64,000 nucleotides of DNA from Candidatus Latescibacterota bacterium (GCA_965198115.1 OZ240241.1:2368001-2432000); one strand, 5' to 3'; positions 33,860 through 53,100 are shown, counted from the first letter of the stretch. A program made the numbers and translations. Notes: generated by a model not told the origin, from the sequence alone.

Positions 33860-34125
33860 TCAAACCAAAGGAGAGTCTACTAACCCCTGCTCCCCAGCTT
33901 TTCTGCTGTATTCCACCGGCACGCGCACCGAAAACGTGCTGCTTCTACCCAACTCACTCTCAACGCCAATTGACCCGCCCAGCAACTGGGCAAACTTCTT
34001 CGTGATCGAGTCCGAGACCCGTGCCTTTCCGCACGCTGCTCTCCGACCCTTCGGCCTGGCGGTATTCGTCAAAGATGGTGGGCAGCTCGGCGGCGGGGAT
34101 GCCCTTGCCGGTGTCCGCAGCGGCG
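33860..34125 (-). repeat. Orphan histidine kinase 3' end, copy 9 (frameshifted)
   Basis: [69 protein letters not shown]. Confidence 0.92.
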
Positions 34126-34190
34126 AGGCCCCAGCTGGTCGTGTCAGCAGGACTGAAGCGGACACGGGGCCATCGGGATGGTGCCGCACT

Positions 34191-35031
34191 CTATAGCTTC
34201 CCGAAGTTGAAAATCCCCCACGCCAGATGGCCATTCCACCCGCCATCAATCCAGTACTGGAGGCCCTTCTTCATGTTGGCCACGTAGTCAGACGTAACAT
34301 CGGCAGCCAGGTCGGCCTCGTGGGCTTCCGTTTCCTCCAGCACCCGCACGTAATGGTGAACGAGTTGGTCGGTCAGGTCCTCGAACAGGATCTGCTGCAT
34401 CCCCAGAACCTCGGCTGTCCTGCGGTAAAACGCTGGGGACCCCAGCGACGACAGGTGTATGCGGTCCAGAATCGGTTGTAGCACCCCATCCAGACAGTCC
34501 TCCGATTTCATCGGATCGGTGAATACGAACTCCCCACTCGATTTCAGGACGCGATGGACCTCCGACAGGACCTGCTCCCGGTCTCCGCTGTGCAGGATGG
34601 CATCCTGCGACCAGACGACATCCACGGACGCGTCCGGCAAGGGGATCTCCTCGAAGCTGCCGTCAACGACATCGATCAGGTTCGACAACCCCTGTTCCAC
34701 ATTCATCTTGCGGCCGCGTTCGTTCTCAACTTCGCTGAGATTCAGAGCCGTCACCTTGCATCCGAAGGTGCTGGACAGGTACCGGGCAGCCCCGCCGTAG
34801 CCAGCGCCGATGTCCAGAACACGCGTGGCCTTCGTTCGGCTCCGTGGAGAGCTTCGCCGCCATGCGCTCAACTGTGCGGCGGCTGGCTTCCCGAATGGAC
34901 TCGGCAGGGTCGACGTAGATGCCCACGTGGATGTCTTCGCCTCCCCAGATGCGATGGTAGAAAGCGTCGGCGTCCTCGCTGTTGTAGTAGTCACGAGCGA
35001 TTTTCACCGCGTGGTTAAACGTTGTTGTCAC
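34191..35031 (-). CDS. Sarcosine/dimethylglycine N-methyltransferase (frameshift ~34840)
   Basis: ARDYYNSEDADAFY..IWGGEDIHVGIY, VLDIGAGYGG, WSQDAILHSG, QPILDRIHL, HLAWGI. Confidence 0.85.
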
Positions 35032-35150
35032 ACCTCAACCTTTCTCTGTATTCCTTCTCCGCTACGTGAATGAAGAAATCCGGCTCCTGGAAGTCACCGA
35101 AGGTATCGATCTTCCGAAACCCGACCTCGTGCAATCGTAGTAGGTGTACC
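35015..35150 (-). pseudogene. C-terminal remnant of glycine/sarcosine N-methyltransferase
   Basis: EVGFRKIDTFGDFQE-PDFFIHVAEK, overlapping the SDMT start as in GSMT-SDMT operons. Confidence 0.7.
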
Positions 35151-35169
35151 TTGTGGAACCCACTTTTAC

Positions 35170-36141
35170 CTATCGATAACTGAACATCACTTGGATGCAT
35201 TGCTCTGGATGCTGGTGAACGAGTTCGTAGGCCTCCGGCGCGCTGTCGAAGGGCAGGTTGTGGGTGATGAGGGAATCCAAGGGCATGTTCGGCAGCATTC
35301 TCAGCGTGCTCCTCACGCGCCGTTCGTAGGACCACCGGGAGGACAGGTGGAGGGGCACGCTGCCACCCTGGGCAACGCGGAGGTGGACACGCTTGTGGTG
35401 GAAATCCCGTGTCAGGTCGAGGGCGGACGCATCGGAGGAGTACCAGCTCAGGGGAACGATTGTGGATTGCGGGCGAATCGCCTTGAATGCGTCGTTCAGG
35501 GCTGGGATCGCCCCGCTGGTTTCGAGGACGACGTCGGCCAGCTCTCCGTCGTTGTGCGCGCGAACCTGCTCCTCGACGTCGACGTCAGTCGGATCCAGGG
35601 CGGCGTCGAGGCCCATCCGTAGGCCGGCCTCCCGCCGGAGGGCGATGGGATCGAAGCCGGTGACCGTGAACGCCCCAGCGCGTCGGACCAGGAAGGAGGC
35701 ACAGAGCCCGACGACACCCAGGCCGAAGACGACGGCGGTCTCACCGAGGGCGGTCTGAGACTCGAGCACCCCGTTGTAGGCCACGCCGGCAAGGGCGGTG
35801 AAGATGCCGTACCGGGGATCCAGCCCATGCGGAAGGCGGTAAACGGGCTCTTCCTCCGAAATGAGAAACTCGGTGGCGTGTGAGGCGTAATGAAAGATCC
35901 GGTCTCCCACCGTGGCTTTCGTGAACTCCGGGCCGATTTCCACGATTTCGCCTACGGCCGAATAGCCGCTACGCCGCGGGAACGAACCGGCGATGCGGCC
36001 GCTGTAGACGTTCATTTCGGTTCCGTGACTGATCCCCGAATACAGCGTCTGCACACGGGCCTGGCAGGAGCCGAGTGGCGGCGCCGGCTCGTCGTGGATC
36101 TCGACTTTCTCCGGGGCGATGATGTGAAGCACTCTGACCAT
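35170..36141 (-). CDS. Zinc-binding/MDR dehydrogenase
   Basis: YSGISHGTE, GYSAVGEI, VFGLGVVG. Confidence 0.88.
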   Translation of the reverse strand: MVRVLHIIAPEKVEIHDEPAPPLGSCQARVQTLYSGISHGTEMNVYSGRIAGSFPRRSGYSAVGEIVEIGPEFTKATVGDRIFHYASHATEFLISEEEPVYRLPHGLDPRYGIFTALAGVAYNGVLESQTALGETAVVFGLGVVGLCASFLVRRAGAFTVTGFDPIALRREAGLRMGLDAALDPTDVDVEEQVRAHNDGELADVVLETSGAIPALNDAFKAIRPQSTIVPLSWYSSDASALDLTRDFHHKRVHLRVAQGGSVPLHLSSRWSYERRVRSTLRMLPNMPLDSLITHNLPFDSAPEAYELVHQHPEQCIQVMFSYR

Positions 36142-36474
36142 GGTAGAGCGACTCCGGTTAGGACTGACGGCGCGTTGGGGGGCGAAAGCCCGAGGACTAC
36201 CCACGAGAGTATGAAAACCGCTATCGGATGAGTCGTTACCCGGACAAAATCTCGTACATCCAGACGGCCATTTGGCTGTTCAGCCACGGCGGGAAACACT
36301 ACCAGACGCTGATCTGGGCGTAGGAAGGTCGCTGGTACACGGAGGTGACGAGCGGGGTTGTATCTCTTACCGACTCGAAGCGGGACCGAACGTGTAATCA
36401 GTCAGCCGGGCGGCGGTGTCGGAATATGGCCCTCCGTTCAGGGTAATGTCAACGAGCTCTTACCGTTTCGCTGT

Positions 36475-36531
36475 TCAACTCTGGGCCTGATACTCCACCG
36501 GCACCCGCACCGTAAACGTGCTGCCCTGGCC
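36475..36531 (-). repeat. Orphan histidine kinase 3' end, copy 8
   Basis: [18 protein letters not shown], starts 1-2 nt after the stop of the upstream gene. Confidence 0.85.
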
Positions 36532-36532
36532 G

Positions 36533-36997
36533 CTACTGCCCAGACGGCAGGTCCGAGTTGAAGATGTCCACCGAGATCAGCCACTCCCCGTCGGGCTGCC
36601 GGCGTCGAATCTCAATGTACTTGCCCGAATCCTTGATCGGCCCCGCTGGCACGATCGTCATCGTGTAGGTACCCAGCACATACGCCAGGTCGTCGCGGCC
36701 GTCTACCTGCACATTGTTTAAGGTGAAGTCTGTCACCGGAGGGAACTTCTCGACCCACGCCTGGATCGCTGCCCGTCCCTTGACCATCGGCGTGTTCGGC
36801 GGGAGGAGAATGGCATCATCGGTATAGAGCTTCGCTGCGGTCGCCCAGTCTTTGGCGAGAAAAGCCTTCACGAAGTTCTGGGACCCCTCGTCAATCGCGC
36901 TCACACTGGCCTGAGAAAGTGGAGCAACCTGCTCCTGGCAGGACAAGAGAGCGGCGAGCATCGCCACGAATCGCAGGGTTCTGATTACGGAACTCAT
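36533..36997 (-). CDS. DUF4440/SnoaL-like (NTF2 fold) lipoprotein
   Basis: Lipobox-like LLSC; LYTDDAILLPP, GRAAI, GKYIEI..RQPDGEWLI. Confidence 0.85.
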   Translation of the reverse strand: MSSVIRTLRFVAMLAALLSCQEQVAPLSQASVSAIDEGSQNFVKAFLAKDWATAAKLYTDDAILLPPNTPMVKGRAAIQAWVEKFPPVTDFTLNNVQVDGRDDLAYVLGTYTMTIVPAGPIKDSGKYIEIRRRQPDGEWLISVDIFNSDLPSGQ

Positions 36998-37242: not shown

Positions 37243-37352
37243 TCAAGATTGGTACGCCACAGGCACCCGCACGGTAAACGTGCTGCCCTTGCCCACCTCG
37301 CTCTTCACGCCGATGGTCCCGCCCAGTAGCTCGGCGAATTTCTCGTGATACA
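37243..37352 (-). repeat. Orphan histidine kinase 3' end, copy 7
   Basis: [31 protein letters not shown]. Confidence 0.92.
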
Positions 37353-37373
37353 GCTGCTCAAAGTTCGGTGTAG

Positions 37374-38759
37374 TTAACCATCACGGCAGACCGGCTGCCT
37401 CCCAGGCGGCCAGCCCCCCACCAGGTCGGAGACCGAAAGCTCTTCCGACTCCAGGAGGCTCGCAGCAATCGAAGATCGGTATCCCGACTGGCAGTGCACG
37501 ACGATGGGGCCGTCACCCAGCTCGTCGATGCGTTCCCCAAGATGGGCAAGGGGGATGTTGACACTCCCTTTGATGCATCTCTCCTCCCACTCAGGCTGCG
37601 CGCGCACATCCACGATCGTCACAGAGTCACCCTCCTCGATCCGTTCGGCCAACGTCGCGGCTGCGATGCGCTCGATTCGACTCACCAGGTCGGGATGCGA
37701 TTCCAACGGCTGCATTCCGCCTTCCAGATAGCCGACTACGCGGTCGTAGCCGATGCGTCCCAGACGGAGCGCGCCCTCGGATTCGCGGCCCGGTTCTGCA
37801 ATCAACACGATTTCTTCCTCCGGCTTCAGCAGCGTCCCGCACCACGTGGCGTACTTGCCGTCGAGTGCGATGTTCAGACTTCCCTTCACGTGCGCTCCCG
37901 CGTACTCCGGCGGCTCCCGCACGTCGAGAACGCGCGCACCCTTCTTCATCAACCCGCGAAGCTCCTCGACACCCAGTCCTTTCAGCGACGTCTCGAGCGC
38001 CGTCTCCAGCGTCGCGTGCTCCCGCGAATTTAGGATCGCATCGTAGGTGAAGTAATCGGGCGCGTCCGGCTGCTCGGCATTCACGATGGCAATGAATGCC
38101 TCCTTCTCCATCGGCTGCAGCGCGTAGTTGTAGGTCCGCTGAACCCCGATCGTAGACACGGTGTCTTCGCTCATATTCTTCCCGCACAGCGACCCCGCGC
38201 CGTGAGCCGGATAAACGAGGGTTTCGGCGGGCAGTTTCATCAGCTTTCCGTGGAGCGATTCGTAGAGCAGTGCCCCCAGCTGTTCCGCCGTCCACCCAAG
38301 CGAGGCCCGCAGATCCGGTCGTCCCACGTCGCCGATGAACAGGGTGTCGCCCGTCAGGACTGCGTGAGGTTTCTCGCTGCTCTCGGCAAGGTCATAGACC
38401 ACGATGGAGATCGACTCGGGCGAGTGTCCCGGAGTTTCCAGGATTTCCAACCGAACGTTGCCGAACTCGAGGGCATCCCCGTCGCCTCCGGGCTCGAACG
38501 CGTACTCCGCTTCGGCCCGACGACCAAGATGGATGGTCGCCCCTGTCTTGTCCCTGAGCTCGAGATGCCCAGCCAGAAAATCAGCGTGAAGATGGCTCAG
38601 GAAGACGTGCCGGATTTCGAGCCCGGCCTCGCCGACATCCGAAAGGTACTGGTCGATATCGCGCTGGGGATCGACGATCACGGCCGTCTGTGTCTCCTCA
38701 TCCGCGATCAGGTAGGATGCGTGCGCCAGGCATCCGAGGTAGTACTGTTTCAGGATCAT
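37374..38759 (-). CDS. MBL-fold hydrolase with two rhodanese domains (persulfide dioxygenase-like); frameshift in last codons
   Basis: SHLHADFLAGH, TPGHSPES, TGDTLFIGDVGRPDL, PAHGAGSLCG, CQSGYRS. Confidence 0.92.
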   Translation of the reverse strand: MILKQYYLGCLAHASYLIADEETQTAVIVDPQRDIDQYLSDVGEAGLEIRHVFLSHLHADFLAGHLELRDKTGATIHLGRRAEAEYAFEPGGDGDALEFGNVRLEILETPGHSPESISIVVYDLAESSEKPHAVLTGDTLFIGDVGRPDLRASLGWTAEQLGALLYESLHGKLMKLPAETLVYPAHGAGSLCGKNMSEDTVSTIGVQRTYNYALQPMEKEAFIAIVNAEQPDAPDYFTYDAILNSREHATLETALETSLKGLGVEELRGLMKKGARVLDVREPPEYAGAHVKGSLNIALDGKYATWCGTLLKPEEEIVLIAEPGRESEGALRLGRIGYDRVVGYLEGGMQPLESHPDLVSRIERIAAATLAERIEEGDSVTIVDVRAQPEWEERCIKGSVNIPLAHLGERIDELGDGPIVVHCQSGYRSSIAASLLESEELSVSDLVGGWPPGRQPVCRDG

Positions 38760-38890: not shown

Positions 38891-39074
38891 TTACGGCATC
38901 AAGATGTGGGCTCCCCGATACTGGACCGGCACCCTCACCGTAAACGTGCTGCCCCTGCCCACCTCGCTCTCCACGCCGATGGTCCCGCCCAGCAGCTCCG
39001 CGAACTTCTTGGTGATGGACAGCCCCAACCCTGTGCCCTTCTGCACGCTGCTCTCCGACCCTTCGGCCTGACGG
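38891..39074 (-). repeat. Orphan histidine kinase 3' end, copy 6
   Basis: [52 protein letters not shown]. Confidence 0.95.
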
Positions 39075-39193: not shown

Positions 39194-40529
39194 TCAGTCT
39201 TCCGCGATGCAGTAGAGATAATCTCGCCCGCGCAGGAAGATTTCGTTTCCCGCGATGGCCGGCGAAGCCGAGAACTCATCGTCGAGCGTGTTTTGGCTCA
39301 GAACTTCATACTGATCGCCTCGCTTTTATTACGACCGTCGTCCCGTTCCTACCTGTGATGTAGACCCGGTCGTTCGCCCCGACGGGCGAAGCGTAGATCC
39401 CATCGATTCCACTCACTCTTTGGGGGCCGAAATACGGGGCGCCCGTCTTGGCGTTCAGACACGAAAGGATGCCGTCATTTCCTTTGAGGAAGTAGAGATA
39501 ATTACCGTAGAGAAGGGGTGAAGGAGTGTAAGGCGTGTCCCGATCGTACCGCCACAAAACGGCGTCAGAATCCGTGATGTCACCCTTTGCACTTGAAAGC
39601 TGAATGGCCAGGAGCATGTTTCCGCGAAAGCCGCTTGTGACATAGAGCCTGCCATCAGCGTAGACCGGTGTAGGTATCACATTGTGCGTCATGCCGCTGC
39701 ACTCCCAGATCATCTTGCCCGTCTCCAGATCGTAGCTTCGCACACGACCAGTCGCGCTCGTGATGATCTGACGACTTCCGTTTTCGTCCACAATCAGGGG
39801 AGTCGCCCACGATGTGATTTCATCCCGATCCACCTTCCAGTCCACCTTTCCCGTCTTCTTGTCAAGGGCAACAAGGAACGACTGCCTCTCGTGATCCCAA
39901 ATGACGACGATCTTGTCGTCGTAAATTGCGGGAGAGCTGCCTTCGCCGAACCCGAGCTTGATCGTCATATCTCCGAAATCGGTCTTCCACTTAAGACTTC
40001 CTTTGAAGTCGTAGCAGTACAGCCCCTGGGACCCGAAATAGGCGTAGACGTGCTCGCCGTCCGTGATCGGCGAGCCTGATGCCCAGCTCCCCGTAGGATG
40101 CCTACTCTCGTGGGGCATCGCCTCGTGCGCCGTCCGCTGCCAGTTTACTTTTCCGGTTCTTCGATCGATCGCAAAAATCTCGAACTTCTGAACGTATTGG
40201 GTACTCAAGGTCGGCGGGCCACGGCGACGGGCCCGAGGCCCTGGCGTCTGCCGATCGCCGACCACATCGGTTTTAAACGCTGAGAGGATAAAGACCTGAT
40301 CTCCCCAGATGATGGGCGAGGCGTGACCCCTTCCCGGAATTCCGACTTTCCAGCGGATGTTCCGGTTCTCACCCCATACCACAGGTGGATCGGCAGGAAA
40401 TGACGTGCCATTTGCAGATGGTCCACGCCATTGGCCCCAGTATGGATCAATGTTGGAAAGATCCTCGGCTCCGACCGCGGCGCAAGATCCTGCACACAGA
40501 CTCAGGACAACTGCTACAAAGCTTGTCAT
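39194..40529 (-). CDS. PQQ-like beta-propeller (BamB-like) secreted protein; frameshift ~39320
   Basis: WGQWRGPSANG, GHASPIIWGD, GEGSSP, SWATP; true tail ..FSASPAIAGNEIFLRG..LYCI lies in another frame. Confidence 0.88.
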
Positions 40530-40628: not shown

Positions 40629-40922
40629 TCACGTGGCGTCCGCGTATTCCACCGAAACCTTCACCGTAAACGTGCTGCCCCTGCCAACCTCGCTCTCCAC
40701 GCTGATGGTCCCGCCCAGCAGCTCTGCGAACTTCTTCGTGATGGACAGCCCAAGCCCTGTGCCTTTCTGGACGCTGCTCTCCGACCCTTCGGCCTGACGG
40801 TATTCGTCGAAGATGGTCGGCAGCTCGTTCTCGGGAATGCCTTTGCCGGTATCGCTGATGGCGATGACCAGCTGGCCGTCTTCGGTGGACGCGCTCACGG
40901 TCACGCTGCCGCTGTCCGTGAA
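40629..40922 (-). repeat. Orphan histidine kinase 3' end, copy 5 (longest)
   Basis: FTDSGSVTV...SDTGKGIP...[35 protein letters not shown]. Confidence 0.95.
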
Positions 40923-41103
40923 CCACCAGCCCGGCAGTCAGTTGCTTCAGCAGACCTTTCTCGCCCAGTAGGTCATCGGGACCGTCACAGTTCTTGATCA
41001 GCTCATCGAGGAGACGATCGACTTCAGCATTCCTGGCCATAGAACCTCCTGTTTCTTCACTATAGGATTCTATCACCAGTTACACGGTTAATCTTACACA
41101 CTC
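40923..41103 (-). mobile_element. IS256-family left-end fragment
   Basis: IR-like gagtgtgtaagattaaccgtgtaac; ORF from 41040 with LLDELI....PDDLLGEKGLLKQLT..LV. Confidence 0.75.
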
Positions 41104-41236
41104 TGGCGCTGGCAGTACAATCACATCAGACCACACAGCTCATTGGGCTATCGCCCACCTGCACCTGAAGCGGTCACCAAACCGCTCACCGCAGCCATAT
41201 CCTAACTCTGGATGTGGACACATAGATGGGGGCAGG

Positions 41237-41308
41237 TCACTCTGGCGACAGCGCCCCGTGCACCACGACGTAGCCGTTTTCCTTGAAGTGATCGAGGTAT
41301 TCGTCCAT
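41237..41308 (-). pseudogene. N-terminal stub of a PhyH-family gene
   Basis: MDEYLDHFKENGYVVVHGALSPE*. Confidence 0.55.
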
Positions 41309-41796
41309 CGCATATCGTGTTGCTGCCATATCGAGACTCTCTGTTGTTCGAGTTTGTGGAACACGTGTAGTGGCAGGTCATCGCAATCCAAGATGCGACC
41401 CGCTCTCCGCCCGAACAAGCACGAGCTTCCACCTACGCTGGAAGCTTCGGCGGACGGGCCGGCGGGCGTGGGTGGTGGAGGGGATTAATTCAAGTGAAAT
41501 TGGAAAATCAGAATGCAAACTGAGGGTCTGTCTGGGTCACGAGAATTCGAGAAGCGTACGGGAAGAACCCTGGTTATCCTTCCAATACGTTGGAGATCAT
41601 CCCGGAAGAGGCAATCCGGCTGGGGGGGATGCTGACAAAGTGGACGTCAGCACGATGGTCCAGACCGTGGATCGAAGCTCGGGCCACCGGTCGGTACGCG
41701 AAATCGCCGGACGGGTGTCGACTTCACTGGGGTGGTCGCTGGCACACGCGGTTTCTGCATTCGACATCAGCGCGCTGCAGATAGGACGGAGGTTAC

Positions 41797-44346
41797 GTGA
41801 GGACAGGAAGAATCATCGCCTTCGTGGGCAGTGTGGGGCTTGCGATTTCGCTGGTCGCCGGCGTGTCTTCGGCTGCGGTATCCGAGGCGGCCATTGTGCT
41901 GACGCGAGAAGCGCTTGCCGATTCGGGCGACACCCTCGCGTCGTTCGAAGCCGTGCTGTCGACCGATGTCGACCAGGCCCTGGCCGACGTCTGGAAATCG
42001 AGGAACCCGCCGATCTATCGATATTATTTCGGTCACCTCGCTGGCAGGCGGCTCTACACCGCATCGGACGCCTTCTACGACGGGCTGCGGAACGTCCCCC
42101 TTCTCTTTCAGGTTGGCGCGCCACCCGCTAACCCAGCCCATCTTGCCCAAGCCGACGCTTTTCTGCGAACCCTTCTCGTTCGGACGCCGGAAGATGCGGT
42201 TGCCCACAACGGGCTGGGCTACATAAGACTGGAGCGTGGCGACTACGAGGGTGCCGAAGCGGCGTTTACGGAAGCCCTCGCACGGGATCGACAACTCGTC
42301 GAAGCCAGAAACGGCCGAGCTCTCGCTTTCCTAGCCCGGCCTAACGGGGGGTCAGAAGGCGTCGAACGGCTCCGGCGGGCGTGGTCGGCCAACACCGACT
42401 ATGGCGACGCGCTCTACGGTCTGGCGGTTGGGCAGATCGTCATCGGGGGTCGCGATATCGGTACGGAGTTCGAGAAGCTGGTTGCTCGGTTTCCAGATCA
42501 TCGGGACGGCTGGTTCAAGCTCGGGGCTTTCCACGAAGCAGATTTCATGGTCGAGAAGGATGCCGACCTCGGAAGAGCGGCGGACGCCTACCGACGCCAG
42601 ACCGTGGTGAATCCCGATCATCCGAAGGCCTGGTTCCGGCTGGGACGAGCCCTGAATCGGTCGGGCCAAAGCGAGGAAGCCATCCAGACGCTTCAGCGAA
42701 TCACGGCCACTCAGCCGGATTACAGACACGCGTATCTCCCTCACTTTTTCGAGGCGTGTCTCAAACGGGGAAATGGGAAACGTGCCTGGTCCGCTGCCCA
42801 GGCGTTTGTAGCAGGTCTCGATCCGGACACCCGCTCCGCCTATGAGGACATCCGGACCATCTCGACCCCCGAAGAAACCAGCGACTTCACCGGTTTGGAC
42901 GGCGCGGTGCGCACCGATTACATCAGACGATTCTGGCAGAAACGAGACCCGACGCCGGTGACGGATGAAAACGAGCGTCGTGTCGAACATTATCGCCGGG
43001 TTCACGACGCGATGGAGTTCTACCCGTCGGCATCCGGGTCGTGGGATCGTCGAGGCGACCTCTACATCCGCTATGGGGATCCTGCCCACACAGGCCGGTG
43101 GAACAACATCCGAAGTGAGCGCACGACAAGTACGCTGTATGCCAAGGACCGTCTACTCCAGTCTCTTCCAAGGACGGCGCAACACGAGATCGCCGAGGCC
43201 AGCAGAGATGCGGCCCACGAAGCCAGCCTCGCGGGGTATCTTTCCGAGTCCGGACGACGCCCGTTCGATCCGAGCGGCGGCCGTGAGCAGATGCTGGACG
43301 TCGTCGAGGGGTTTCCTCTCTACCCCGTCCAGCGCGGTCGATTTTGGGAATACTGGCTCTATCCGGACATCGTGGAAGGTCTGGAGATCGTCTTCGTGGC
43401 GTCCGACCCGGACGGGCCGATGGACTACCCGCCTCCGCCCGAGGGCCGCGGCCGGGGGAACGACGCGGTGTGGGAGGCCCATCATCCAGCGAAGATTCTG
43501 GCCGAAACGATCGCGGTCGAGAGTGAGTCCTACAGCCTCGAGGGGCCGTCCATCGCGGTGACGCTTGACCACGCCGACTTTCGGGGAGCGGGACGCAAGG
43601 CGCGACTTGAAATCTACTTCGGGTACGCACATCGGAACCTGACGCCGGTTCGTGAAGACACGGGCTACGTCGTTCGCGGCATTGCGCTGTTCGACACGAC
43701 CTGGACCGCGAGATACCGGCGCACGGACACGCTGACGTTCGTGAAGCGGGGAGAGGTGGAGGAAATCGGGATCAGTGAGTTTCCCGTCAACCTGCCCGGC
43801 GGGAACTACATCGTGGGTGCTCAGTTCGCCGACCCGACGTCGATGGCCGTCGGGTCGGCGTATCTTGAGGTCGAGGTCGACAATTACCCGGCTGGTAGAT
43901 TCGGGTTGAGCGACATCGAAATAGCTTCGGTGATCAGAGAACCCGAAGCTGACGGGGGGCATCTCATCGTATTCCCGAATCCGACGCGGCAGTATACCCC
44001 AAAAAGCCCCGTCAAGATGCACTACCAGATTTACGGGCTGTCTGGAGGAACGAACGGGCGATGTCGCTATATCGCGGATGTTCGCATCGATCCACGCGGC
44101 GATGCGCGGCCCTTTGTCGCGCGCGTGCTTCGTTCAGCCGGCAAAGTCGTGCGAAAGACGAGAAACAACGACGGGATGTCCATCAGAACGGAGGCATCGA
44201 ACGACCGACCCGATCAGGAGGAATATATCGAGTTGGAAGCGTCGGGTCGATCCGGGGGGCACTACGACGTGACCGTATCCGTGACGGATCTTGTAACGAA
44301 CCGATCGATCGCGAAGCAATCGGCGTTCGAGATCGTGCGTCGATGA
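41797..44346 (+). CDS. TPR- and GWxTD-domain exported protein
   Basis: Signal peptide, TPRs (AHNGLG, AWFRLG), FWQKRDPTP..NE...EHYRR, WDRRGDLYIRYGDP. Confidence 0.88.
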   Translation: MRTGRIIAFVGSVGLAISLVAGVSSAAVSEAAIVLTREALADSGDTLASFEAVLSTDVDQALADVWKSRNPPIYRYYFGHLAGRRLYTASDAFYDGLRNVPLLFQVGAPPANPAHLAQADAFLRTLLVRTPEDAVAHNGLGYIRLERGDYEGAEAAFTEALARDRQLVEARNGRALAFLARPNGGSEGVERLRRAWSANTDYGDALYGLAVGQIVIGGRDIGTEFEKLVARFPDHRDGWFKLGAFHEADFMVEKDADLGRAADAYRRQTVVNPDHPKAWFRLGRALNRSGQSEEAIQTLQRITATQPDYRHAYLPHFFEACLKRGNGKRAWSAAQAFVAGLDPDTRSAYEDIRTISTPEETSDFTGLDGAVRTDYIRRFWQKRDPTPVTDENERRVEHYRRVHDAMEFYPSASGSWDRRGDLYIRYGDPAHTGRWNNIRSERTTSTLYAKDRLLQSLPRTAQHEIAEASRDAAHEASLAGYLSESGRRPFDPSGGREQMLDVVEGFPLYPVQRGRFWEYWLYPDIVEGLEIVFVASDPDGPMDYPPPPEGRGRGNDAVWEAHHPAKILAETIAVESESYSLEGPSIAVTLDHADFRGAGRKARLEIYFGYAHRNLTPVREDTGYVVRGIALFDTTWTARYRRTDTLTFVKRGEVEEIGISEFPVNLPGGNYIVGAQFADPTSMAVGSAYLEVEVDNYPAGRFGLSDIEIASVIREPEADGGHLIVFPNPTRQYTPKSPVKMHYQIYGLSGGTNGRCRYIADVRIDPRGDARPFVARVLRSAGKVVRKTRNNDGMSIRTEASNDRPDQEEYIELEASGRSGGHYDVTVSVTDLVTNRSIAKQSAFEIVRR

Positions 44347-44386: not shown

Positions 44387-45481
44387 CTACCGCACCGAAC
44401 TCAACGGCTCTGAAATTGCGGCGATCTTTTCCTCGTCCAGTTCCATCCCCAGCCCCGGGCCTTCGGGCAAGAGCACATACCCCTTCTCGTATTGAATCGG
44501 ATTCTTGACAACATCACTTTCATAGAGCTGTCCGCCCGTGCAATCACCTGGATAGTCGAGGTTTTCCGTGATACAACCGAACGTGGCCTGGGCCGCGACA
44601 CCGATTGACAGTTCCTGGGTGGTACCGACGAGGACGGATAGTCCAGCCGAGTCGGCGACCTGGGCCATGTGCAGTGCGTTGGTGATTCCGCCCGCACCAG
44701 AGAGGCTGATGTTGTAGATGTCGACATACTTGTGGTAGGCGAACTGGTAGGCCTGATTGAGCGAGGAGACGTGTTCACTGATCGGCAGATCGACGCGCTT
44801 TCGCACTTCGTACTGCCCATCGAGATCTTTCCGATCAGAGACGGATTCAAGCAGGATCGGGGTGTAGTATTGGGACAGAATCCCCACGGCGTGAACCACG
44901 TGTTTCCACTTGCGGGCGGCGCTGAAGTCGAGCGATTTCAGCTCGAACTTGTCGCCGTGGTTTGACTTCACGCCGTCCAGGAAGATCTCGTCCGCCTCGA
45001 CATTCCCACCGTGATACAGCCGGAACAGGTCCTGGCCCTCACCCATCCGGCGATCGACGCGCTTGATGTTCGCTTCGGCGTCTTCCCGTGAGTGATTGGG
45101 GAAGATGGGGTAACAGACGCGCATCTTGTCCGTGAGCTCCCCGCCAAACACGCCCGCCACCGACCGGCCCTGGATTTTGCCGATCAGGTCGAACAGGGCG
45201 ATCTCGAATCCTGTGCGAATGGCCCTGCCCATCGCGAAGCGACCACGCGCCGCTCTTGTGATGGGGTGCCAGTCGAGGGGATCCTTTCCGGCCAGTAGCG
45301 ATTCGTAGGCGCCCTTCACATCGGCCAGATCATACATGACACCCCAGTCGCCCACGTCGGACATCTCGCCCAGACCGACAAGCCCTTCGTCGGTGTTGAA
45401 TTGAACGACGACGTGACGGGAGACCTCTCCTGTTTCACGCCGGGTTGCGACAGGTGTCAGATCAACGCTGGTGATCTTCAT
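44387..45481 (-). CDS. Enolase superfamily (muconate cycloisomerase/mandelate racemase-like)
   Basis: TDEGLVGLGE, EIALFDLIGK, GGIT, PEGPGLGMELDE. Confidence 0.88.
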   Translation of the reverse strand: MKITSVDLTPVATRRETGEVSRHVVVQFNTDEGLVGLGEMSDVGDWGVMYDLADVKGAYESLLAGKDPLDWHPITRAARGRFAMGRAIRTGFEIALFDLIGKIQGRSVAGVFGGELTDKMRVCYPIFPNHSREDAEANIKRVDRRMGEGQDLFRLYHGGNVEADEIFLDGVKSNHGDKFELKSLDFSAARKWKHVVHAVGILSQYYTPILLESVSDRKDLDGQYEVRKRVDLPISEHVSSLNQAYQFAYHKYVDIYNISLSGAGGITNALHMAQVADSAGLSVLVGTTQELSIGVAAQATFGCITENLDYPGDCTGGQLYESDVVKNPIQYEKGYVLLPEGPGLGMELDEEKIAAISEPLSSVR

Positions 45482-45519: not shown

Positions 45520-45570
45520 TCAGGCATCAGGTGGCTGATAGCTGCCCGGCACGCGTGAACGTGCTGCCCT
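45520..45570 (-). repeat. Orphan histidine kinase 3' end, copy 4 (short, internal deletion)
   Basis: aagggcagcacgttcacg-cgtgccgggcagctatcag.. = (K)GSTFT/VPGSYQPPDA*; abuts stop of upstream gene. Confidence 0.7.
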
Positions 45571-46716
45571 TCACATCTCATCAGCCGGGTGACGAATACG
45601 GCGATCGGGGAAGGGCTCGTAAGGGTAGCGGGCGAGTGCGTCTTCATCGAGCTCGATGCCCAGCCCCGGTCGTTCGGGGAGGGCGATGTGGCTGTCGACG
45701 ACCTCGAACGGCGTCGTCGCAATATCCTGGCCGAGGGGCTCGAGGTTCACGAAGTACTCGAGGATGATGAAGTTGGGCATGGAGGCCACGGTGTGCATGG
45801 TTGCGGCGAGTCCCACGGTCGTGCTGTTGTAGTTGTGGGGTGCGACGCCGACGTGATAGGCCTCTGCCATCGCGCCGATCTCTTTGAGCTCGAGGATACC
45901 GCCGCACGCGCCAATGTCCGGATTGATGATGTCGGCTACGTGCTTCTCAAATGCCAGTACGAACTCCTGCTTGAGGTATAGCTCTTCACCAGAGACGACT
46001 GGGATGTTGATCTGGCTGCGCGCTTCGGCCAGTCCATTCAGATCACGCGAGGAAACGGGCTCCTCATACCAGAACGGTCGATACGCTTCGATTCTCCGGG
46101 CCACGCGGACGGCGTGCATAGGTGCAAGGCGGCGATGCACTTCGACCAGAATCTCGACGTCGGGACCGACCGCTTCGCGGACAGCCTTAACACGTTCGAC
46201 GGCAATGTCCTCTTGCGCGCGGTCGATGTAGGCGCGGCGCGGACCGGGGAAAGGATCGAACTTGAGGCCGGTGAATCCGCGCGCGACCACTTCCTCTGCG
46301 CGGCGTGCCAGCGTGTCTATGTCTCCCCCACCCCCCCATCCGTTCGCGTAGACGCGAATCTTCTCTCGGCAGGCTCCTCCCAACAGATTGTGGACCGGCT
46401 GTCCCGCGGCCTTTCCGACGATGTCCCACAGGGCTATCTCGAGGCCGCTGATGGCGCAATACAGATCCATCGCGCCTCGCTTGTCCGCGAAGTCGGTGTA
46501 GGCCCAGAAGGTGAAATGCTTGATCTCGAAGGGAGAACGGCCACGTAGATATCGGGCGAGCTGATGAATGTGCGACTCGATGGTTTGGGCCCGATCGGCG
46601 TGCGTGTAGGCCTCACCCCAACCGTGGATGCCCTCGTCTGTCTCGATTTTGACGAAGCACAGGTTCTTGCCGCTCGGCGGACGGATCAGGAAGGTTTCGA
46701 TATCGGTGATTCTCAT
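45571..46716 (-). CDS. Galactonate dehydratase-like enolase superfamily enzyme
   Basis: KIETDEGIHGWGE, EIALWDIVGK, KFDPF, WYEEP, APHN, PGLGIE. Confidence 0.9.
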   Translation of the reverse strand: MRITDIETFLIRPPSGKNLCFVKIETDEGIHGWGEAYTHADRAQTIESHIHQLARYLRGRSPFEIKHFTFWAYTDFADKRGAMDLYCAISGLEIALWDIVGKAAGQPVHNLLGGACREKIRVYANGWGGGGDIDTLARRAEEVVARGFTGLKFDPFPGPRRAYIDRAQEDIAVERVKAVREAVGPDVEILVEVHRRLAPMHAVRVARRIEAYRPFWYEEPVSSRDLNGLAEARSQINIPVVSGEELYLKQEFVLAFEKHVADIINPDIGACGGILELKEIGAMAEAYHVGVAPHNYNSTTVGLAATMHTVASMPNFIILEYFVNLEPLGQDIATTPFEVVDSHIALPERPGLGIELDEDALARYPYEPFPDRRIRHPADEM

Positions 46717-46833: not shown

Positions 46834-48375
46834 CTATGACCGCCTCGGGGGTTTGCCGAGATTGCGCGACACGTAGTTGAAGATGACGGCTCGTCTCGGG
46901 GTGTCGTTCTTCCACGGGTAGGCGCCGTGGATCTGAGCGGATCCCATGAAGATGACGAGGTCGCCGGCTTTCATCTCGACGTGTCTGAGAAGTCCTCTCT
47001 CGTCCTCCAGAGAGCGCACGCGCTCGGGCACGGGGTGACTCGTTTTGTGCGAACCGGCAATGCCGAAAAAGCCGCCGTCGCCGGCATTCACATCGCGCAG
47101 CTGCCAGGCGACGTTGATGGTCTCGCAGTACGTCCTGCCATTCTGCAGCGCATAGATGCTTCGCGCCGACCCGGGGTAGCACCCGCTGTGCACGCCGTGC
47201 CCCGAGGTGCCCTTTTCGTAGACGATGGCACGCGCGGCGTCGACGACAAAGCCCGAGCCCGACATCCAGTTGAGACGCTGCACGAGAGCGGGGTTGGCGA
47301 TCATGCGGCGGAACGGTTCGGCGTGGGGATGCGGGAGGTCGAAGAGGCCGCTCAGCGATGACACGCCGGTGCCGGCGAGTCGCTTCGTATTGTGGCTTAC
47401 ATCACCTCCCTTGACGATGTTGTCAGTACCGGCGTCGATCGCTTCATTGGCGGCAGCGAGCCACGCTTCGTCCATGACGTTGCGCACGACGAGGTGGCCG
47501 TTGAGATCCCAGAAGTAGAACTCCTTTTCGTCAATCTGGCAATCGGGGTCGCGAATCGTGGTAGTGGGATGGTAGGTCCCCGGCTCCTCGTCCACCCACG
47601 TGCGCGTGCCGTCGGAGTGGACAATGGGTGCCGGATTCGGCCGGTCGACACCGAGGATGACGCGCTGCTCCGGCGTCATCTCATCCACCCAGTTTGGAGG
47701 GTCTCCATCCGCATCCTCGGCGGGAGCGTCATTCGACCGGCGCACGAGCCGGCTGATATAGCCGGTGCTGAGCAGCCGTTTCGCCCCTCCCCTCCAAGGA
47801 CGCATGCCCTGGAGCAAGGTGGCAACCGACAACAGCAGGTCACCCGCCTCGAGCGCCGGCTGCAGTGTCAGACCCATGTCGTCACTGCCGTCGAGGACAT
47901 CGGATGGCGTCTCGACGAGGCTCTTGTGCGAGCAGGGCACGAGGCTGAAGCCGCCATCTCCCTCGGCGACATCCCCGAGAGCCCAGATCGCGCGGACGCC
48001 GAGAGTGAAACGGGCGTCGTTACCGCAGTAGTAGGAACCGGACCAGTTGCGTGGCTCGCCGCCGCCGACCAGAGGCGCAGCTGGCGCCACCCGCTCGTCG
48101 AGCAGCCGTGGCGGTCGATCGAGTCGGCTGCCGTCGTAACAGAGCTGATCGAGGTATCCCGTCAGGATCGGGTGCTCGAGGAGCCTGACGAAGGGATCGC
48201 ACCAGGGTGACTCCCACTCCAGCATCCCCTCCCGTCTACCGACGCGATCGATGGCCTCATTGCAGGCGGTCACCTCCGGCTGCGTGAGGACCCCACGGAG
48301 GATGAGGTAACCGGCGACGTCGAGACAAAATTCATCTTCTGGTGAGATTTCAGGCTGGGAGTTTTCTGGAACCAA
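46834..48375 (-). CDS. Tandem two-domain PhyH-fold protein (second domain HSG)
   Basis: LDVAGYL and WDLNGHL domain starts; GGF..V/I..SHK twice; IHGAYPW..RR. Confidence 0.88.
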   Translation of the reverse strand: MVPENSQPEISPEDEFCLDVAGYLILRGVLTQPEVTACNEAIDRVGRREGMLEWESPWCDPFVRLLEHPILTGYLDQLCYDGSRLDRPPRLLDERVAPAAPLVGGGEPRNWSGSYYCGNDARFTLGVRAIWALGDVAEGDGGFSLVPCSHKSLVETPSDVLDGSDDMGLTLQPALEAGDLLLSVATLLQGMRPWRGGAKRLLSTGYISRLVRRSNDAPAEDADGDPPNWVDEMTPEQRVILGVDRPNPAPIVHSDGTRTWVDEEPGTYHPTTTIRDPDCQIDEKEFYFWDLNGHLVVRNVMDEAWLAAANEAIDAGTDNIVKGGDVSHNTKRLAGTGVSSLSGLFDLPHPHAEPFRRMIANPALVQRLNWMSGSGFVVDAARAIVYEKGTSGHGVHSGCYPGSARSIYALQNGRTYCETINVAWQLRDVNAGDGGFFGIAGSHKTSHPVPERVRSLEDERGLLRHVEMKAGDLVIFMGSAQIHGAYPWKNDTPRRAVIFNYVSRNLGKPPRRS

Positions 48376-48447: not shown

Positions 48448-48516
48448 TCAGGCTTCAGGTGGGTGATAGCTTGTGCGGATTCGCACCGTAAACGCGCTGC
48501 CTTCCCGATCCGCTTC
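48448..48516 (-). repeat. Orphan histidine kinase 3' end, copy 3 (degenerate)
   Basis: EGSAFTVRIRTSYHPPEA*; begins about 7 nt after the STAS stop. Confidence 0.7.
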
Positions 48517-48522: not shown

Positions 48523-48872
48523 TCAGGAATCGACCCCAAAGCTAGCCACGCCCGCATCGGCGTTGTCGAAAAACTGAAACACTTCCTCCAGATGCGTTAC
48601 CACGAAGACGTTCGTCAACCGCGTGTTCACCCCCGCCAATCGCAGGTCACCGCCCGCCTCTTTGGTCAGTTTCAACGCCGCCGTTAGAATGCCCAGCGTG
48701 CTACTGTCCAACCAGTTAACTCCATCCAGATCCAGAACCACTTTCGAGGTGCCATTTGTAATCAGTTTTCCGATCTCGTCGTTCTCAATTCCTCGCTATG
48801 GCTCGCATAGAGCGTGCTCTGCTCCGGCTTGACCACCGCTACTCCATCCTGAACATAAACCCGGGTGTTCAT
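48523..48872 (-). CDS. STAS-domain anti-sigma-factor antagonist (frameshift ~48785)
   Basis: MNTRVYVQDGVAVV.. then VVLDLDGVNWLDSSTLG; GAAGGAG RBS. Confidence 0.85.
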
Positions 48873-48999: not shown

Positions 49000-49070
49000 G
49001 GCCCCTGATACTAGACCGGCACCCGCACCGTAAATACTCCCCCTCCTCACCTCGCTCTTAATCCCCGAAC
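49000..49070 (-). repeat. Orphan histidine kinase 3' end, copy 2 (degenerate)
   Basis: KSEV..G/FTVRVPV*YQG; starts about 6 nt after the stop at 49076. Confidence 0.8.
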
Positions 49071-49075
49071 CACAT

Positions 49076-49675
49076 TTATAACGCGTCCTCTGCCCACTCG
49101 TGATCGGGCGGGATTGTCCACGTTTCCGACAGTGCCAGGCAGCAACTGGATCCCTCTTTACCGAACAGATCCCGGGGCAGAACCCGTCCGGGAACCGTTT
49201 CGCCATTGATCGTCATTTGGGCACGCCTGGCGGGGATCAACAGGCTGTAGACGCCGTGCGGCTGGTCCGGATTCTCGCCTGGCTGGTTGGCGACCTGGAC
49301 CGGTTCCATGAAGTCGTACCAGGATAGGGCAATGTGCTCATCCCTCGACACGACGTATTCCACCCAGGAAGTCAGCGTGTCGCCCTTTTTGGTGAATCTG
49401 GCCTCGATGATGGGAATGTCACCCGAGTAGGTATCCCGCATCGAAGCCTGGATGCCTTCCTGGAGCCAGCGCGCAAGGGCGAAGTTGTCGGAATAGATCC
49501 GAGGCTCGTTGTTGGACAAGACGCTCTTTGCGAAGAGGATGTGGCCCACTCCCCTGGAGGATGCCATGATCCGCCAGTGGCTGTTCTCGGCCGTCGGCTC
49601 CGCATCCTCGGACTCTCCGATACGCAGAAATGAGTTCTCGCCTGTGAGACGTATCTTGTTGGGGTCTGCTCCCAT
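49076..49675 (-). CDS. Hypothetical protein
   Basis: 199-aa ORF with AGGAGG RBS and natural composition; family not recognised. Confidence 0.75.
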   Translation of the reverse strand: MGADPNKIRLTGENSFLRIGESEDAEPTAENSHWRIMASSRGVGHILFAKSVLSNNEPRIYSDNFALARWLQEGIQASMRDTYSGDIPIIEARFTKKGDTLTSWVEYVVSRDEHIALSWYDFMEPVQVANQPGENPDQPHGVYSLLIPARRAQMTINGETVPGRVLPRDLFGKEGSSCCLALSETWTIPPDHEWAEDAL

Positions 49676-49719
49676 TTTCCTCCTCCTAGTCTGTCATTTC
49701 TGAGCGAGATGAGTGACGG

Positions 49720-49902
49720 TCACGATTTCGCCTGTCTCAGAATTCCCTCGTAAATCGCCTTCACGGCCTCAATGGTGCCTCTGAGTTGATCCAGCTCTTC
49801 CGTCACGTCTTCTCCACGACGGCTGCGATCCAACAAGGTCATCATTTCTCGAGCGTGGGTCTCGAGCTGAGTATGCAGGTTCTGTAGGGTGTCTTCTGTC
49901 AT
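49720..49902 (-). CDS. Small helical hypothetical protein
   Basis: 60 aa, GAAGGA RBS, amphipathic helices. Confidence 0.6.
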   Translation of the reverse strand: MTEDTLQNLHTQLETHAREMMTLLDRSRRGEDVTEELDQLRGTIEAVKAIYEGILRQAKS

Positions 49903-49914
49903 CGGTTCAGTCCT

Positions 49915-50005
49915 TCAAGTTTGCTCTTGATACTCCGTCGGTACCCGCACTGTGAACGTACTCCCCTTACCCACCTCGCTCTCCACACCGATGGTCCCAC
50001 CCAGG
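49915..50005 (-). repeat. Orphan histidine kinase 3' end, copy 1
   Basis: [29 protein letters not shown]. Confidence 0.92.
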
Positions 50006-50135
50006 AACCCTGAGGGGGAGAGGGGGCGCTGGGAGGAGAGCCCTCCTTCGCGGCTGACGCCGCTTCGGCGGACAGGAGGGGGAAAAAGCGGAAGCCCAAC
50101 GCGATTCTCTGGCGGTTCGTTTAGCCATACGCGAC

Positions 50136-53100
50136 TTACTCGGTATACTCTGTGGGGATGGTGACGGTGAATGTGGAGCCTTTACCCACCTCGCTCTCCA
50201 AGGTGATCGAACCTCCGAGCAACTCCGCGAACTTCTTGGTAATCGACAGCCCCAACCCTGTACCCTTCTGCACGCTGCTCTCCGACCCTTCGGCCTGACG
50301 GTATTCGTCGAAGATGGTTGGGAGTTCGTCGGCGGGAATGCCCTTACCAGTGTCAGAGACGGAAATGATCAGTTCGCTGGCCGTCGAACTGTCGGCGGTT
50401 GGCGGTGAGCTGTCGGCGGAGCCATCGCGCTCGGTTTCCGTGTCCCCGAGTGTGCCGGCCGGTGGCCGGGATGTAACGAGGGGCGCCAGATTCGCGCGAA
50501 CCACTACTTCTCCCGAATCCGTGAACTTGATCGCATTGGACAGGAGGTTAATGACCATCTGTTGCAGCCGCGCCTTATCAGTGTTCGCTTCGCCGATGTC
50601 GACGGCCACGTCCTGGCGGAGCTCAACGCCCTCCTGGATCAGAGGGCTGACGGTGTCGCACGCCGACGTGACCAGTTCCCCCACATCGAACCGCTCGGGG
50701 TTCACGTCCATCCTGCCTGCCTCAATTTTCGACAGGTCGAGCAGGTCGTTGATCATCGCGAGCAGGTGGTCGGATGCCTGATCGACCTTCTCCAGGTTCT
50801 CGCGCTGCCTGTCGGGAATCTCACGACCGATCCGTCGAAGCACCACGTTCGTAAAGCCCTTGATGGCGTTCATCGGCGTGCGCAGTTCGTGCGACATTGA
50901 CGCGAGGAAGGCCGACTTGCGCTCGGTCGCTTCCTGTATCTCGCGGATGTCGAGGTAACGGGCGTAGCCGAGGGCGACGGCGTCGGCGAATTCACGTAGC
51001 GTGGCGATCTCGTCGTCGTTGAAGCGTTCCCGACCTGACGCAATCAGCCTGAGCCGCCCATAACTTCCTGCCGGGACTTCAAGGATTGTCGTGTCCTCTT
51101 CAACAACCGCCTGCCAGGGCTCCCCGGCGATGAAACGTTCGACAGTTTGACGAATCACACCGGGGAACGGTGCAGCAACGGCAAAGGCTTCTACGGCGAC
51201 GTGGCCTGTCGTGTCGAGCGTGTAAGTCGCGTATTTGAATCCGTTCTCCTCAAACAGCTCTATCGTCGGATTCTCGACCGGCTCATCCAGCACGTCGATT
51301 TCGCAGCCATCGAAGGTGAGTTCCACCGTCTTCAGGCTCTCGGTCAGCAGCGACAGGATGCGCTCGAAATCGCTCGCCTCGTCCATCGACTGCACTTCAG
51401 CACGTAGACGCTGGACGGATGCCTCAACAGCGAGTCGACGGTTCTGTGCTTCCTTCTGCTGTAGCTCCTTGTGGCGCGAATGGGCGTATCCAAACACGTC
51501 GCCGAAACGGTTGATGAGCATCACGTATTCTTCGGCGATCGGCTCTTCAGACGCCACGTGGACATAGCCACCACAGAAAAAGGCCATAAATCAACCTTCT
51601 TCGGCCACTGGTCTTCAGGAACTGCCCCCCAACGAAGATACCCGCGCTTGGCATTGTCCCGGATGCTATCTCTGAGTGCATCATCCTCCAGGTGAAAATG
51701 GTAGTACTCTTTACCCCTCAGACGAGCTTGCGTTGGCGGAGAGTTTTCAGGGGGACGTCGGACCATCTTGTACGGCTTCCGAGCACGACCCGTTTCATCT
51801 GTAGACCATACCTCCATTTTGGTATCTGACACGTGGATGGTGATGGACGAGTCCACCAGATTTAGCCCAAGCCCAGTCAACTCATGACAAACCGCCTCCA
51901 CCATGGGACCAATGTCCTCGCTCGACTGCATCCCCTGCGCCTGACCCCGCAGCCGCTCCAGCACCTGCTCGCGCTGGAGGTCCACGTTGACCTGGAACAG
52001 TTCGTTGTTGGCGGACGAGAGAGCATCCACCGAATCCTGTAGCTTTCGCTTGCCCTGCACGACGCGGGCGGACTGGAAGAGCACGGCGATGATGAGCAGG
52101 AGTCCAGGACCCGCCACGACGGGGTCACGCCACCACGGGGCCTCGACGACAAACGAGTGAACGGCGGGTGTCGGGTCTACGTTGAGTTCGTCATCGGCAG
52201 CGCGTACTTCAATGCGGTGCTTCCCCGACGATAGAGATGTGAGGGTGACACCATCTCGGGTCGTCCAGGGTGACCAGTTGCCAGCGTCCAGACGGTGCTG
52301 GTAACGAACCTCCTCTTGCGGGGTGACGTCCCAGAGGTCGCGGCCGGACCACGTCAACTGGGTGTTGCCAGAGGAACCAACCTCGGCCGGGGTGACTTGG
52401 AAGCGGGTCTCGGGGGCGTCTTGGTCCGTTGTCAGACTGCCCGTCAGGCCCGCCCCCGTCGTGTAGCCCAAGCGTCCGTCCCGTTCCAGCCAAAGGTGTT
52501 CCACCACGCCAGGCCAGATACCGTCTTCCTCTGTGTAACTAGCCCAGAGTTCCGTTCGAGGGTCAAAGTGGCTGATGCCGTTGTCAGTGGCGACCCAGAC
52601 CGTTCCGTCCGAGTCGGGGAGAACCTCTTCTGAGAATTCACCGGCCAGACCATCGCGCATCCTGTAGGTTCGCCAAGCTGCCTGCCCTGAACCGGCATCC
52701 GACTTGTATCGCGAGACACCCAAGCCGCCGGCAATGCCTCCGTATGTGCACCACAAGTCCGAACCTGAAACCCGAAACCCCCTTGCCTTATTGCCCGGAA
52801 ATCCCTCCTCATAGCTCGACCAGGTGCCGGTGAACCAGCTGATGCCGTTGAGCGTGCCTGCCCAGATGGTGCCGTCCGGTGACTGTCCGAAGCCGTAAAA
52901 TGCGGTTGTGGAGAAGTCCATCGGCAGTCGTGTAACGGGTCCACGTAGATCCATCGAAGTGCATCACGCCGTCGCTGACCAGGACTGCTCCCGGCTTGGG
53001 CCAATTATTGGTGCCGAACCAAATGTCTCCGCTCGCTTCAACGAGAGGAGAATGGAGTCGCTCGGCATCAACACCGGGGTCCAGAACCTGCCACGACTTT

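Follow-up and report, generated by a model that had tools for sequence, protein, structure and literature searches.

Integrons and clusters of attC sites lacking integron-integrases (CALINs) hold single genes in tandem and in one orientation, with a repeat just past each stop codon. At rhs loci a lead gene is followed by co-oriented copies of itself, 5′-truncated to variable lengths and separated by other genes, and the fragments come from the clade of the lead gene and no integrase is involved (PMC2935791). Homology-facilitated illegitimate recombination (HFIR), with insertions or deletions of ~1 kb and 3-10 bp of microhomology (PMC3240628), has been proposed for type VI secretion system (T6SS) and rhs arrays (PMC5361080), whereas Jackson et al. 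2009 propose circles instead for rhs displacement (PMC2935791). Tycheposons (bioRxiv 10.1101/2020.12.28.424599) and the additive islands of Alteromonas (PMC4898812) consist of elements stacked one behind another, with partial tRNAs between them and integrases in fragments. Here we describe a locus of Candidatus Latescibacterota bacterium (GCA_965198115.1, OZ240241.1) at which the 3′ end of a sensor histidine kinase gene recurs nine times among unrelated genes. The window, by which we mean the whole 64,000-nucleotide stretch analysed, is G000:C1:2368001-2432000, G000 being the single-contig genome of 8.43 Mb, and bare positions are counted from the first letter of the window. With a probability that we put at roughly 55%, these orphan tails are 3′ ends stranded by homology-anchored displacement in a kinase family, inside a decayed tRNA-Glu island array; such displacement would fit Rhs-like C-terminal displacement by HFIR. 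As the original prediction, a note made from the sequence alone, had supposed, no earlier description for a signalling kinase was listed in the literature searched, subscription papers and supplements being outside the search.

The locus shares with rhs arrays the lead gene, the trailing co-oriented and variably 5′-truncated copies from the clade of that gene, the intervening genes and, as far as the tails themselves go, the lack of an integrase. However, rhs displaces the variable tip, which is the payload, whereas here the tail is the conserved HATPase_c end and the payload is unrelated and metabolic; at this locus stranding affects 5′ ends as well, remnants of tRNA att sites occur in the array, and, unlike in rhs and CdiA loci, there is no variable toxin tip with an immunity gene, the cargo being enzymes and small domains. 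With the orphan immunity arrays of the Vibrio cholerae T6SS and with HFIR (PMC5361080, PMC3240628) it has in common a proposed upstream anchor with an illegitimate joint downstream, the replacement of ~1 kb (in one case) and short microhomology at some joints, but it differs from the T6SS arrays in having no toxin-immunity logic, a signalling family of 17 paralogues as anchor and cargo that crosses a family boundary at 98% identity. As in tRNA additive islands and tycheposons, there are cassettes at a tRNA 3′ end, partial tRNA repeats, fragmented integrases and cargo near-identical across taxa, and a minority of tycheposons likewise use large serine recombinases. Unlike in additive islands, the window array lies far from an intact tRNA-Glu; tycheposons, for their part, have an inward-facing site-specific integrase at one end, mostly a lineage-specific tyrosine recombinase, whereas here an outward serine recombinase ends in att, and the non-autonomous element here consists of a kinase gene that has been emptied, a form absent from the cited passages. 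The tandem co-oriented single genes and the repeat just past the stop also recall integrons and CALINs, from which the locus departs by an IntI match below cut-off, no attC-like fold, a variable 5′ boundary and a repeat that is former coding sequence. In its workings the locus is like rhs/T6SS displacement placed inside a tRNA additive island, and by the criteria applied here it is not an integron, a diversity-generating retroelement (DGR), a miniature inverted-repeat transposable element (MITE) or a tycheposon.

The array of orphan tails

Searching with a DNA profile built on the 3′ end of the kinase recovered all nine predicted copies, each on the minus strand (Table 1). Seven score 25-96 bits, against a maximum of 11.0 bits in a reversed-genome control, and two are weak on their own, the tail at 48448 (15.1 bits) and that at 45520 (10.6 bits), the latter being better preserved (24 bits) in its twin at G000 496051-497904, where the enolase-tail-enolase unit occurs a second time. 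Alignment places the 5′ boundaries of tails 1-9 at 50008, 49058, ~48501-48515, 45572, 40923, 39074, 37349, 36531 and 34126, with lengths to the reference stop of 97, 71, 54, 57, 297, 174, 117, 60 and 239 nt, in agreement with the expected truncation to about 50-300 bp. Two further statements held in part: most copies do reach the kinase C-terminal motif, with a stop or indels inside it in the tails at 49000 and 45520, and tails do begin close behind the preceding stop codon, within 25 nt in 5/9, although the count of four within about 10 nt became two within 2 nt. Genome-wide, 11/32 orphans begin no more than 45 nt after a stop (8.5% expected, p=4e-5). Contigs of run X1 show no differences from the assembly and bridge five of the nine junctions (34126, 36531, 37349, 48501 and 49058) by at least 31 letters; X1 is possibly the source sample, so its contigs are not independent support. 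Junctions 39074, 40923, 45572 and 50008 lack bridging in the X1 pieces listed, which had been cut, and 45572 is bridged by a contig of X8, a separate study.

The tails differ from the consensus of six family kinase ends by 219 synonymous and 96 non-synonymous changes and one stop codon, as against 88 synonymous and 26 non-synonymous changes for the family kinase copies in the same comparison; the predicted excess of synonymous differences is real, and most of the divergence therefore arose under coding. This supports the view that the tails are former coding ends of kinase genes, and each is most similar to the end of a family kinase, with 81-95% identity (one 34-nt copy, 100%).

The genome contains 17 family kinases and 32 orphan tails, a list that omits three 3′-truncated fragments and profile matches near the control level. 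Within 20 kb of a family kinase and co-oriented with it lie 18 tails downstream and four upstream, none being in the opposite orientation; random placement gave a mean of 0.59 and a maximum of 9 in 5000 draws against the 18 observed downstream. Outside the window, 9/23 orphans are likewise downstream of a co-oriented family kinase. Around unrelated kinases no such clustering exists: a co-oriented copy reaching the 3′ end was found at 0/80 loci (four with short self-matches; 621 kb downstream, the distant kinases taken from a scan of the genome contigs), against 9/17 family kinases within 10 kb. When 4451 non-IS genes (IS, insertion sequence) were ranked by orphan 3′ ends, the kinase family came first (up to 26); the other high-ranked genes are without paralogues, and at least some run into repeats. 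Fragments of the family concentrate in the last 300 bp of the gene, with about five short interior fragments among the matches listed. The scattered and randomly oriented pattern of an ordinary repeat is absent, and a MITE or dispersed repeat was rejected on the variable 5′ ends and on the 22/32 tails near a co-oriented kinase with none opposite, terminal inverted repeats and target duplications not having been searched separately. Orphan tails occur in 7/9 relatives sampled (G001, G003, G005, G010, G012, G030 and G031, not G023 or G040), some of them on short contigs, and viral contigs gave no exact match to the tail core.

Features of the lead gene and its cargo complete the picture. The lead kinase had been taken as full-length; two frameshifts, either real or assembly errors, divide it into three open reading frames (ORFs; 52809-54572, 51521-52954 and 50136-51587), and this copy lends no support to the idea that the kinase is kept functional. 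In G000 the frameshift background is four distinct genes in 121 comparisons, and the kinase family is well above it; intact family kinases of 1151-1339 aa with orphans downstream are present in G031. The cargo identities proposed earlier (STAS, PhyH, enolases and so on) hold in profile scans, but the plus-strand GWxTD gene, the IS pieces, the second kinase head and the tRNA-Glu att had been missed. An Atlas search with the 199-aa cargo protein gave unnamed clusters only. Between the kinase head and an IS1595 element, ARAGORN places a tRNA-Gln(TTG) at 57266-57341, possibly island-borne or atypical, that has no Rfam match at gathering score; the whole window gave 0 Rfam matches at gathering scores.

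Table 1. Features of the array and its borders, by position in the window
Feature	Position	Strand	Remarks
Decayed island junction	58966..59144	-	serine-recombinase 3′ remnant, degenerate tRNA-Glu att ~59040-59058, left-end motif
Family head of lead kinase	54539..54617	-	conserved upstream motif (predicted promoter, by eye) and first codons
Lead sensor kinase, Reg_prop propeller ... HisKA-HATPase_c	50136..54572	-	three ORFs, two frameshifts
Orphan tail 1	49915..50008	-	frame intact
60-aa cargo gene	49720..49902	-	in L063 comes after 690-bp HisKA-HATPase piece
199-aa cargo gene, no Pfam family	49076..49675	-	93.6% tail-less copy at G000 5657543
Orphan tail 2	49000..49058	-	frameshift and stop
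STAS-domain cargo gene	48523..48804	-	
Orphan tail 3	48448..48515	-	decayed, 15 bits
PhyH cargo gene	46834..48375	-	
Enolase-superfamily gene A	45571..46716	-	stop codon overlaps tail 4
Orphan tail 4	45520..45572	-	5-nt deletion; twin G000 497198-497239
Enolase-superfamily gene B	44387..45481	-	~20 nt past tail stop; own ribosome-binding region
GWxTD/TPR gene	41797..44346	+	opposite strand to array
Second kinase head fused to PhyH 5′ fragment	41240..41490	-	89% to head+PhyH copy, G000 4994416-4994610
IS3-type end; IS256/Mutator transposase 5′ fragment	41104..41239; 40923..41103	-	latter joined directly to tail 5
Orphan tail 5	40629..40923	-	297 nt, frame intact, HATPase_c
PQQ-type propeller cargo gene	39306..40529	-	
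Orphan tail 6	38891..39074	-	frame intact
MBL-fold/rhodanese cargo gene	37374..38759	-	
Orphan tail 7	37243..37349	-	
DUF4440 cargo gene	36533..36997	-	
Orphan tail 8	36475..36531	-	begins 1 nt past DUF4440 stop
Zinc-binding dehydrogenase cargo gene	35170..36141	-	
Sarcosine/dimethylglycine methyltransferase-like gene	34191..35031	-	frameshifted; below NCBIfam cut-off
Orphan tail 9	33860..34126	-	one frameshift
Island right end	33748..33849	-	terminator-like hairpin 33774-33820; tRNA-Glu 3′-end att fragment 33748-33765
Orphan head upstream of DUF6785 genes	31357..31407	-	
Collapsed unit	29088..29261	-	head 29222-29261 fused almost directly to right-end hairpin 29088-29179

Joints, shuffled cargo and stranded heads

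The same cargo is found in other orders and in other hosts. In the metagenome contig L063 the 60-aa gene of the window stands behind a 690-bp HisKA-HATPase piece, itself behind a DUF6784 gene whose window position is 29290; the contig thus places the tail and 60-aa gene elsewhere in the same region, and this unit therefore exists on a longer kinase and in another order. The prediction that tail-cargo units would recur on a kinase is borne out to this extent, the kinase piece being much longer than the tail and its position different. Contig L064 carries a two-tail array with different cargo, and contigs of four other studies contain the 199-aa gene and match as far as 49060, which is 2 nt short of where the tail starts, before they diverge. 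A gene for a mechanosensitive-channel helix (94-95% alike in L064, L067 and G000 4966k, 3127k and 1396k) has a tail adjoining in 4/5 places, and its copies differ in orientation. Between L043:9782-12000 and G000 1414942-1417134 the identity of G001 and G000 is 93%, against 74-81% for most other shared genes there; these genes adjoin kinase sequence in both genomes, a recent transfer. For the kinase fragment at G000 1413.7k a complete gene in G001 at first looked like the orthologue, but it was discarded, the identity being 70% only.

Replacement within the kinase itself is seen at G000 481-486k, where ~1095 bp of kinase core has been replaced by ~775 bp carrying SpoIIE and the old tail is kept behind; similar SpoIIE-tail layouts exist in G031 and G005, and another HATPase precedes the tail at G000 3129k and in G031. 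The measured swap at 481-486k agrees with HFIR, in which one side is homologous and the deletion roughly equals the insertion in length. Judging by these sequences, output-domain swaps leave the same scar as cargo capture. Six joints have a known uninterrupted partner, and the exact microhomology is mixed: 10 bp (L068), 8 bp (the G030 head-BNR joint), 3 bp (L044), 1 bp (the IS256 joint at 40923) and 0 bp twice (the IS3 end at G000 3530492, and L064). Clear joints to IS sequence number two among the 32 tails (window 40923 and G000 3530492), with repeat matches upstream of two others. An NHL-BNR-IS3-end segment is ~100% duplicated at G000:C1:1403501-1405364 and 3530492-3532355, one IS end being joined to a kinase tail. 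Tail-to-tail joints in Logan contigs were excluded from the evidence, as other paralogues could be their origin. At L066:75-1778 a dCache-HisKA-HATPase kinase with the family tail in frame stands among purine-synthesis genes; it lies on a metagenome contig of low coverage and is likely an assembly chimera.

Kinase 5′ heads are stranded as well. A profile of the ~80-bp head motif, built from 7 of the matches, gave 28 matches in G000 above a threshold of 13 bits (control maximum, 11.3), and at G000 2397-2470k ten heads alternate with 12 tails on the minus strand, while at G000 619k and 624k a tail is directly followed by a head. Inside the window array a head at ~41370-41490 is fused to the PhyH fragment, which is followed by the IS3 and IS256 pieces and then by tail 5. 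Tail length declines with distance within 50008-45572 and again within 40923-36531, though the copies are few. The claim of a single, roughly chronological array fails because of this inner head, the restarts of length at 40923 and 34126, the IS256 joint and the fact that, in a weakly supported tree, no window tail groups with the present kinase end.

tRNA-Glu att sites and serine recombinases

Remnants of att and recombinase bound the array at its two ends. The att at 33748-33765 is an 18-bp copy of the tRNA-Glu 3′ end, lying behind tail 9 and its hairpin, and a large serine recombinase, of which a decayed 3′ end is left, comes just before the degenerate att at ~59050; with these partial tRNA direct repeats (33748-33765 and ~59040-59058) the window resembles a unit in G030 that has repeats of 20-21 bp. 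'Integrase-free' is therefore to be confined to the tails themselves, and an intact recombinase is present in trans. The other half of that claim, no intI and no attC, stands as far as the profile and folding tests go; no tyrosine integrase adjoining the array was found, PF00589 giving 0 matches in G000 1.12-2.90 Mb.

The tRNA-Glu genes of G000 (2872k, 3318k and 3673k) are far from the array, whereas in G030 L035 and G001 L040 the intact target tRNA is adjacent. Of the three orphan att copies in G000, two follow a tail at a distance of 90-140 bp, and the third lies 250 bp ahead of a head. The order tail-hairpin-att recurs at window 33748, G000 1441k and L065, and att-left end-head at G000 481k, 2594k and 3147k, in G001 L044 and in G002 L072. 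Intact large serine recombinases abut tRNA-Glu(CTC) in G000 (483 aa; best NCBIfam match CcrB, far below cut-off) and in G030 (547 aa); the recombinase points outward and its 3′ end runs into att, only a remnant being left at the window array, and such 3′ remnants precede att copies in six genomes. Of the replication genes that are hallmarks of tycheposons, a DUF3854/D5 primase adjoins att in G030, and DUF3854 is found in G033; among eight proteins scanned beside the G000 recombinase there were none. In G030, which belongs to another family, there are two copies, 99.8% alike, of an 1822-bp att-head-BNR gene-tail-hairpin-att unit. The first sits right at tRNA-Glu(TTC), the second 97 kb from tRNA-Glu(CTC) and adjoining genes orthologous to G000 2491-2498k; two copies of the BNR segment in G000 match that of the unit at 98.2% identity.

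Some neighbouring observations concern the same elements. At G000:C1:1439080-1439478 lies a serine-recombinase fragment, a second broken piece of a tRNA-Glu island stack; an array of three tails has its att 1.5 kb away. The island type recurs at a different tRNA in G031 (L032:13190-14851), where a large serine recombinase runs into tRNA-Leu and has upstream of it an orphan tail and the genes for a Toprim protein and for SpoIIE. Twenty tRNA genes lie on one strand at G000:C1:2870558-2872531, and a short palindromic repeat, REP-like by appearance, has dozens of copies genome-wide (e.g. G000:C1:5291751-5291840).

Explanations and their meaning

Under displacement, conserved kinase ends would act as homology anchors, probably of the RecA type; incoming DNA with another allele and its neighbour gene would recombine by homology inside the kinase gene, and a far joint by short microhomology or deletion in the last 300 bases would strand the old kinase end, so that each tail would stem from a former allele of this multi-copy family. 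Transformation or island transfer may supply the DNA, kinase alleles and emptied kinase shells possibly travelling as tRNA-Glu islands that bring new neighbours, with the large serine recombinase acting in trans on these att sites; later deletions, some IS-driven, would trim the tails and erase att junctions. Several results weigh against this account. Half of the six joints have 0-1 bp of microhomology, two joints were made by IS elements, ComEC is present but split over two frames (G000:C1:826316-827105), and in G000 neither the lead kinase nor any other family copy examined is unbroken, so that selection for a working 3′ end would be conjectural. No event was caught between two close strains, a tail match is found in only 16/52 genomes of the order and the core pattern in 6/131 of the class, so that most relatives lack it, and in the weakly supported tail tree the tails are not one lineage and none groups with the present kinase end of the window. 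Only 1/9 window tails has hairpin and att behind it, and heads are stranded about as often as tails, which tandem islands with deletion explain equally well.

That last account would make each tail the right end of an att-head-cargo-tail-hairpin-att mini-island, stacked at tRNA-Glu by the serine recombinase, with deletions then removing att/head junctions and locking the cargo, so that displacement at a living kinase is unneeded. The complete G030 unit, the recurrent att-bearing ends at three and five places, the alternating heads and tails and the description of tycheposons as stacked elements with partial tRNAs (bioRxiv 10.1101/2020.12.28.424599) lend it weight; we still hold it rather unlikely, as there are only three clear att copies and four right-end hairpins for 32 tails, only 3/28 heads have att 170-250 bp upstream, most tails stop cleanly at the kinase stop and are followed by cargo, the SpoIIE and HATPase swaps require recombination within the kinase, and cargo entry into the shell still needs an illegitimate step. 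IS-driven decay, by which dispensable kinase paralogues would lose their 5′ parts through transposon-linked deletions and the tails be passive survivors, is clearly improbable: 970 of the 7965 ORFs called are near-identical and multi-copy (mostly IS transposases, judging by the examples scanned), and the two tails abutting IS sequence and the excess of frameshifts in the family also count in its favour, but two clear joints in 32, the concentration in the last 300 bp, the lack of any other gene family behaving so and the recurrence in relatives and metagenome contigs do not fit.

Only a small chance is left to the idea that the tail core is a dedicated, attC-like recombination site used by a recombinase in trans, in the manner of an integron. 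Tails often begin just past a stop, their 5′ ends cluster and the core is kept in nearly all copies, yet the best IntI match in G000 is 107.9 bits (TIGR02249, cut-off 265), the folding z of the 45-nt core is -0.87 (top) and -1.4 (bottom), an attC covariance model not being part of that test, and third-position identity is 0.82-0.83 in the core against 0.73-0.78 upstream; an attC-like or hairpin site was rejected on this lack of a folding signal and on the little added synonymous conservation. The 5′ ends span 46-297 nt with every joint different, and although 11/31 fall within 15 nt, the clustering is significant against a uniform (p<2e-4) and not against an exponential length model (p=0.06), so that a breakpoint hot spot was likewise rejected. 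Least credible of all is an assembly artefact or a retro-element product, whether DGR template repeats or 5′-truncated retrocopies. Truncation at the 5′ end with a fixed 3′ end is typical of retrocopies, and this is a one-contig genome with many frameshifts; however, no copy is the same as another or as any kinase end, five of the joints are bridged without change by X1 contigs, RVT_1 gave 0 matches in G000 for a reverse transcriptase, and mismatches are rarest at adenine (A 0.076, C 0.159, G 0.13, T 0.118), and DGR and retrocopy were both rejected on the last two counts.

A further step beyond displacement, which we regard as possible but doubtful, is that the kinase head, with its predicted promoter, and the tail have been co-opted as a chassis flanking single genes, cassettes ready for expression being swapped by ordinary recombination among the many heads and tails while the tRNA-Glu serine recombinase, acting in trans, ships units between families. 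If true, this would be a two-tier gene capture without IntI or attC, in which the birth of a cassette is readable at base resolution.

Three features appear to be new: the scale, the stranding of heads, and a kinase shell bounded by att that crosses between families. If displacement holds at this locus, C-terminal displacement would apply beyond toxin loci, to a family of signalling genes whose cargo is metabolic, and the base-level joints would show how single genes are cut back to their ribosome-binding site and stop codon and packaged with no integron involved. In the G030 unit an emptied gene forms the body of a non-autonomous island that has crossed from one family to another. The same process would swap output domains on one sensor, from kinase to SpoIIE phosphatase. 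If kinase ends are a general anchor, orphan tails would become an easy marker of gene-capture hot spots.

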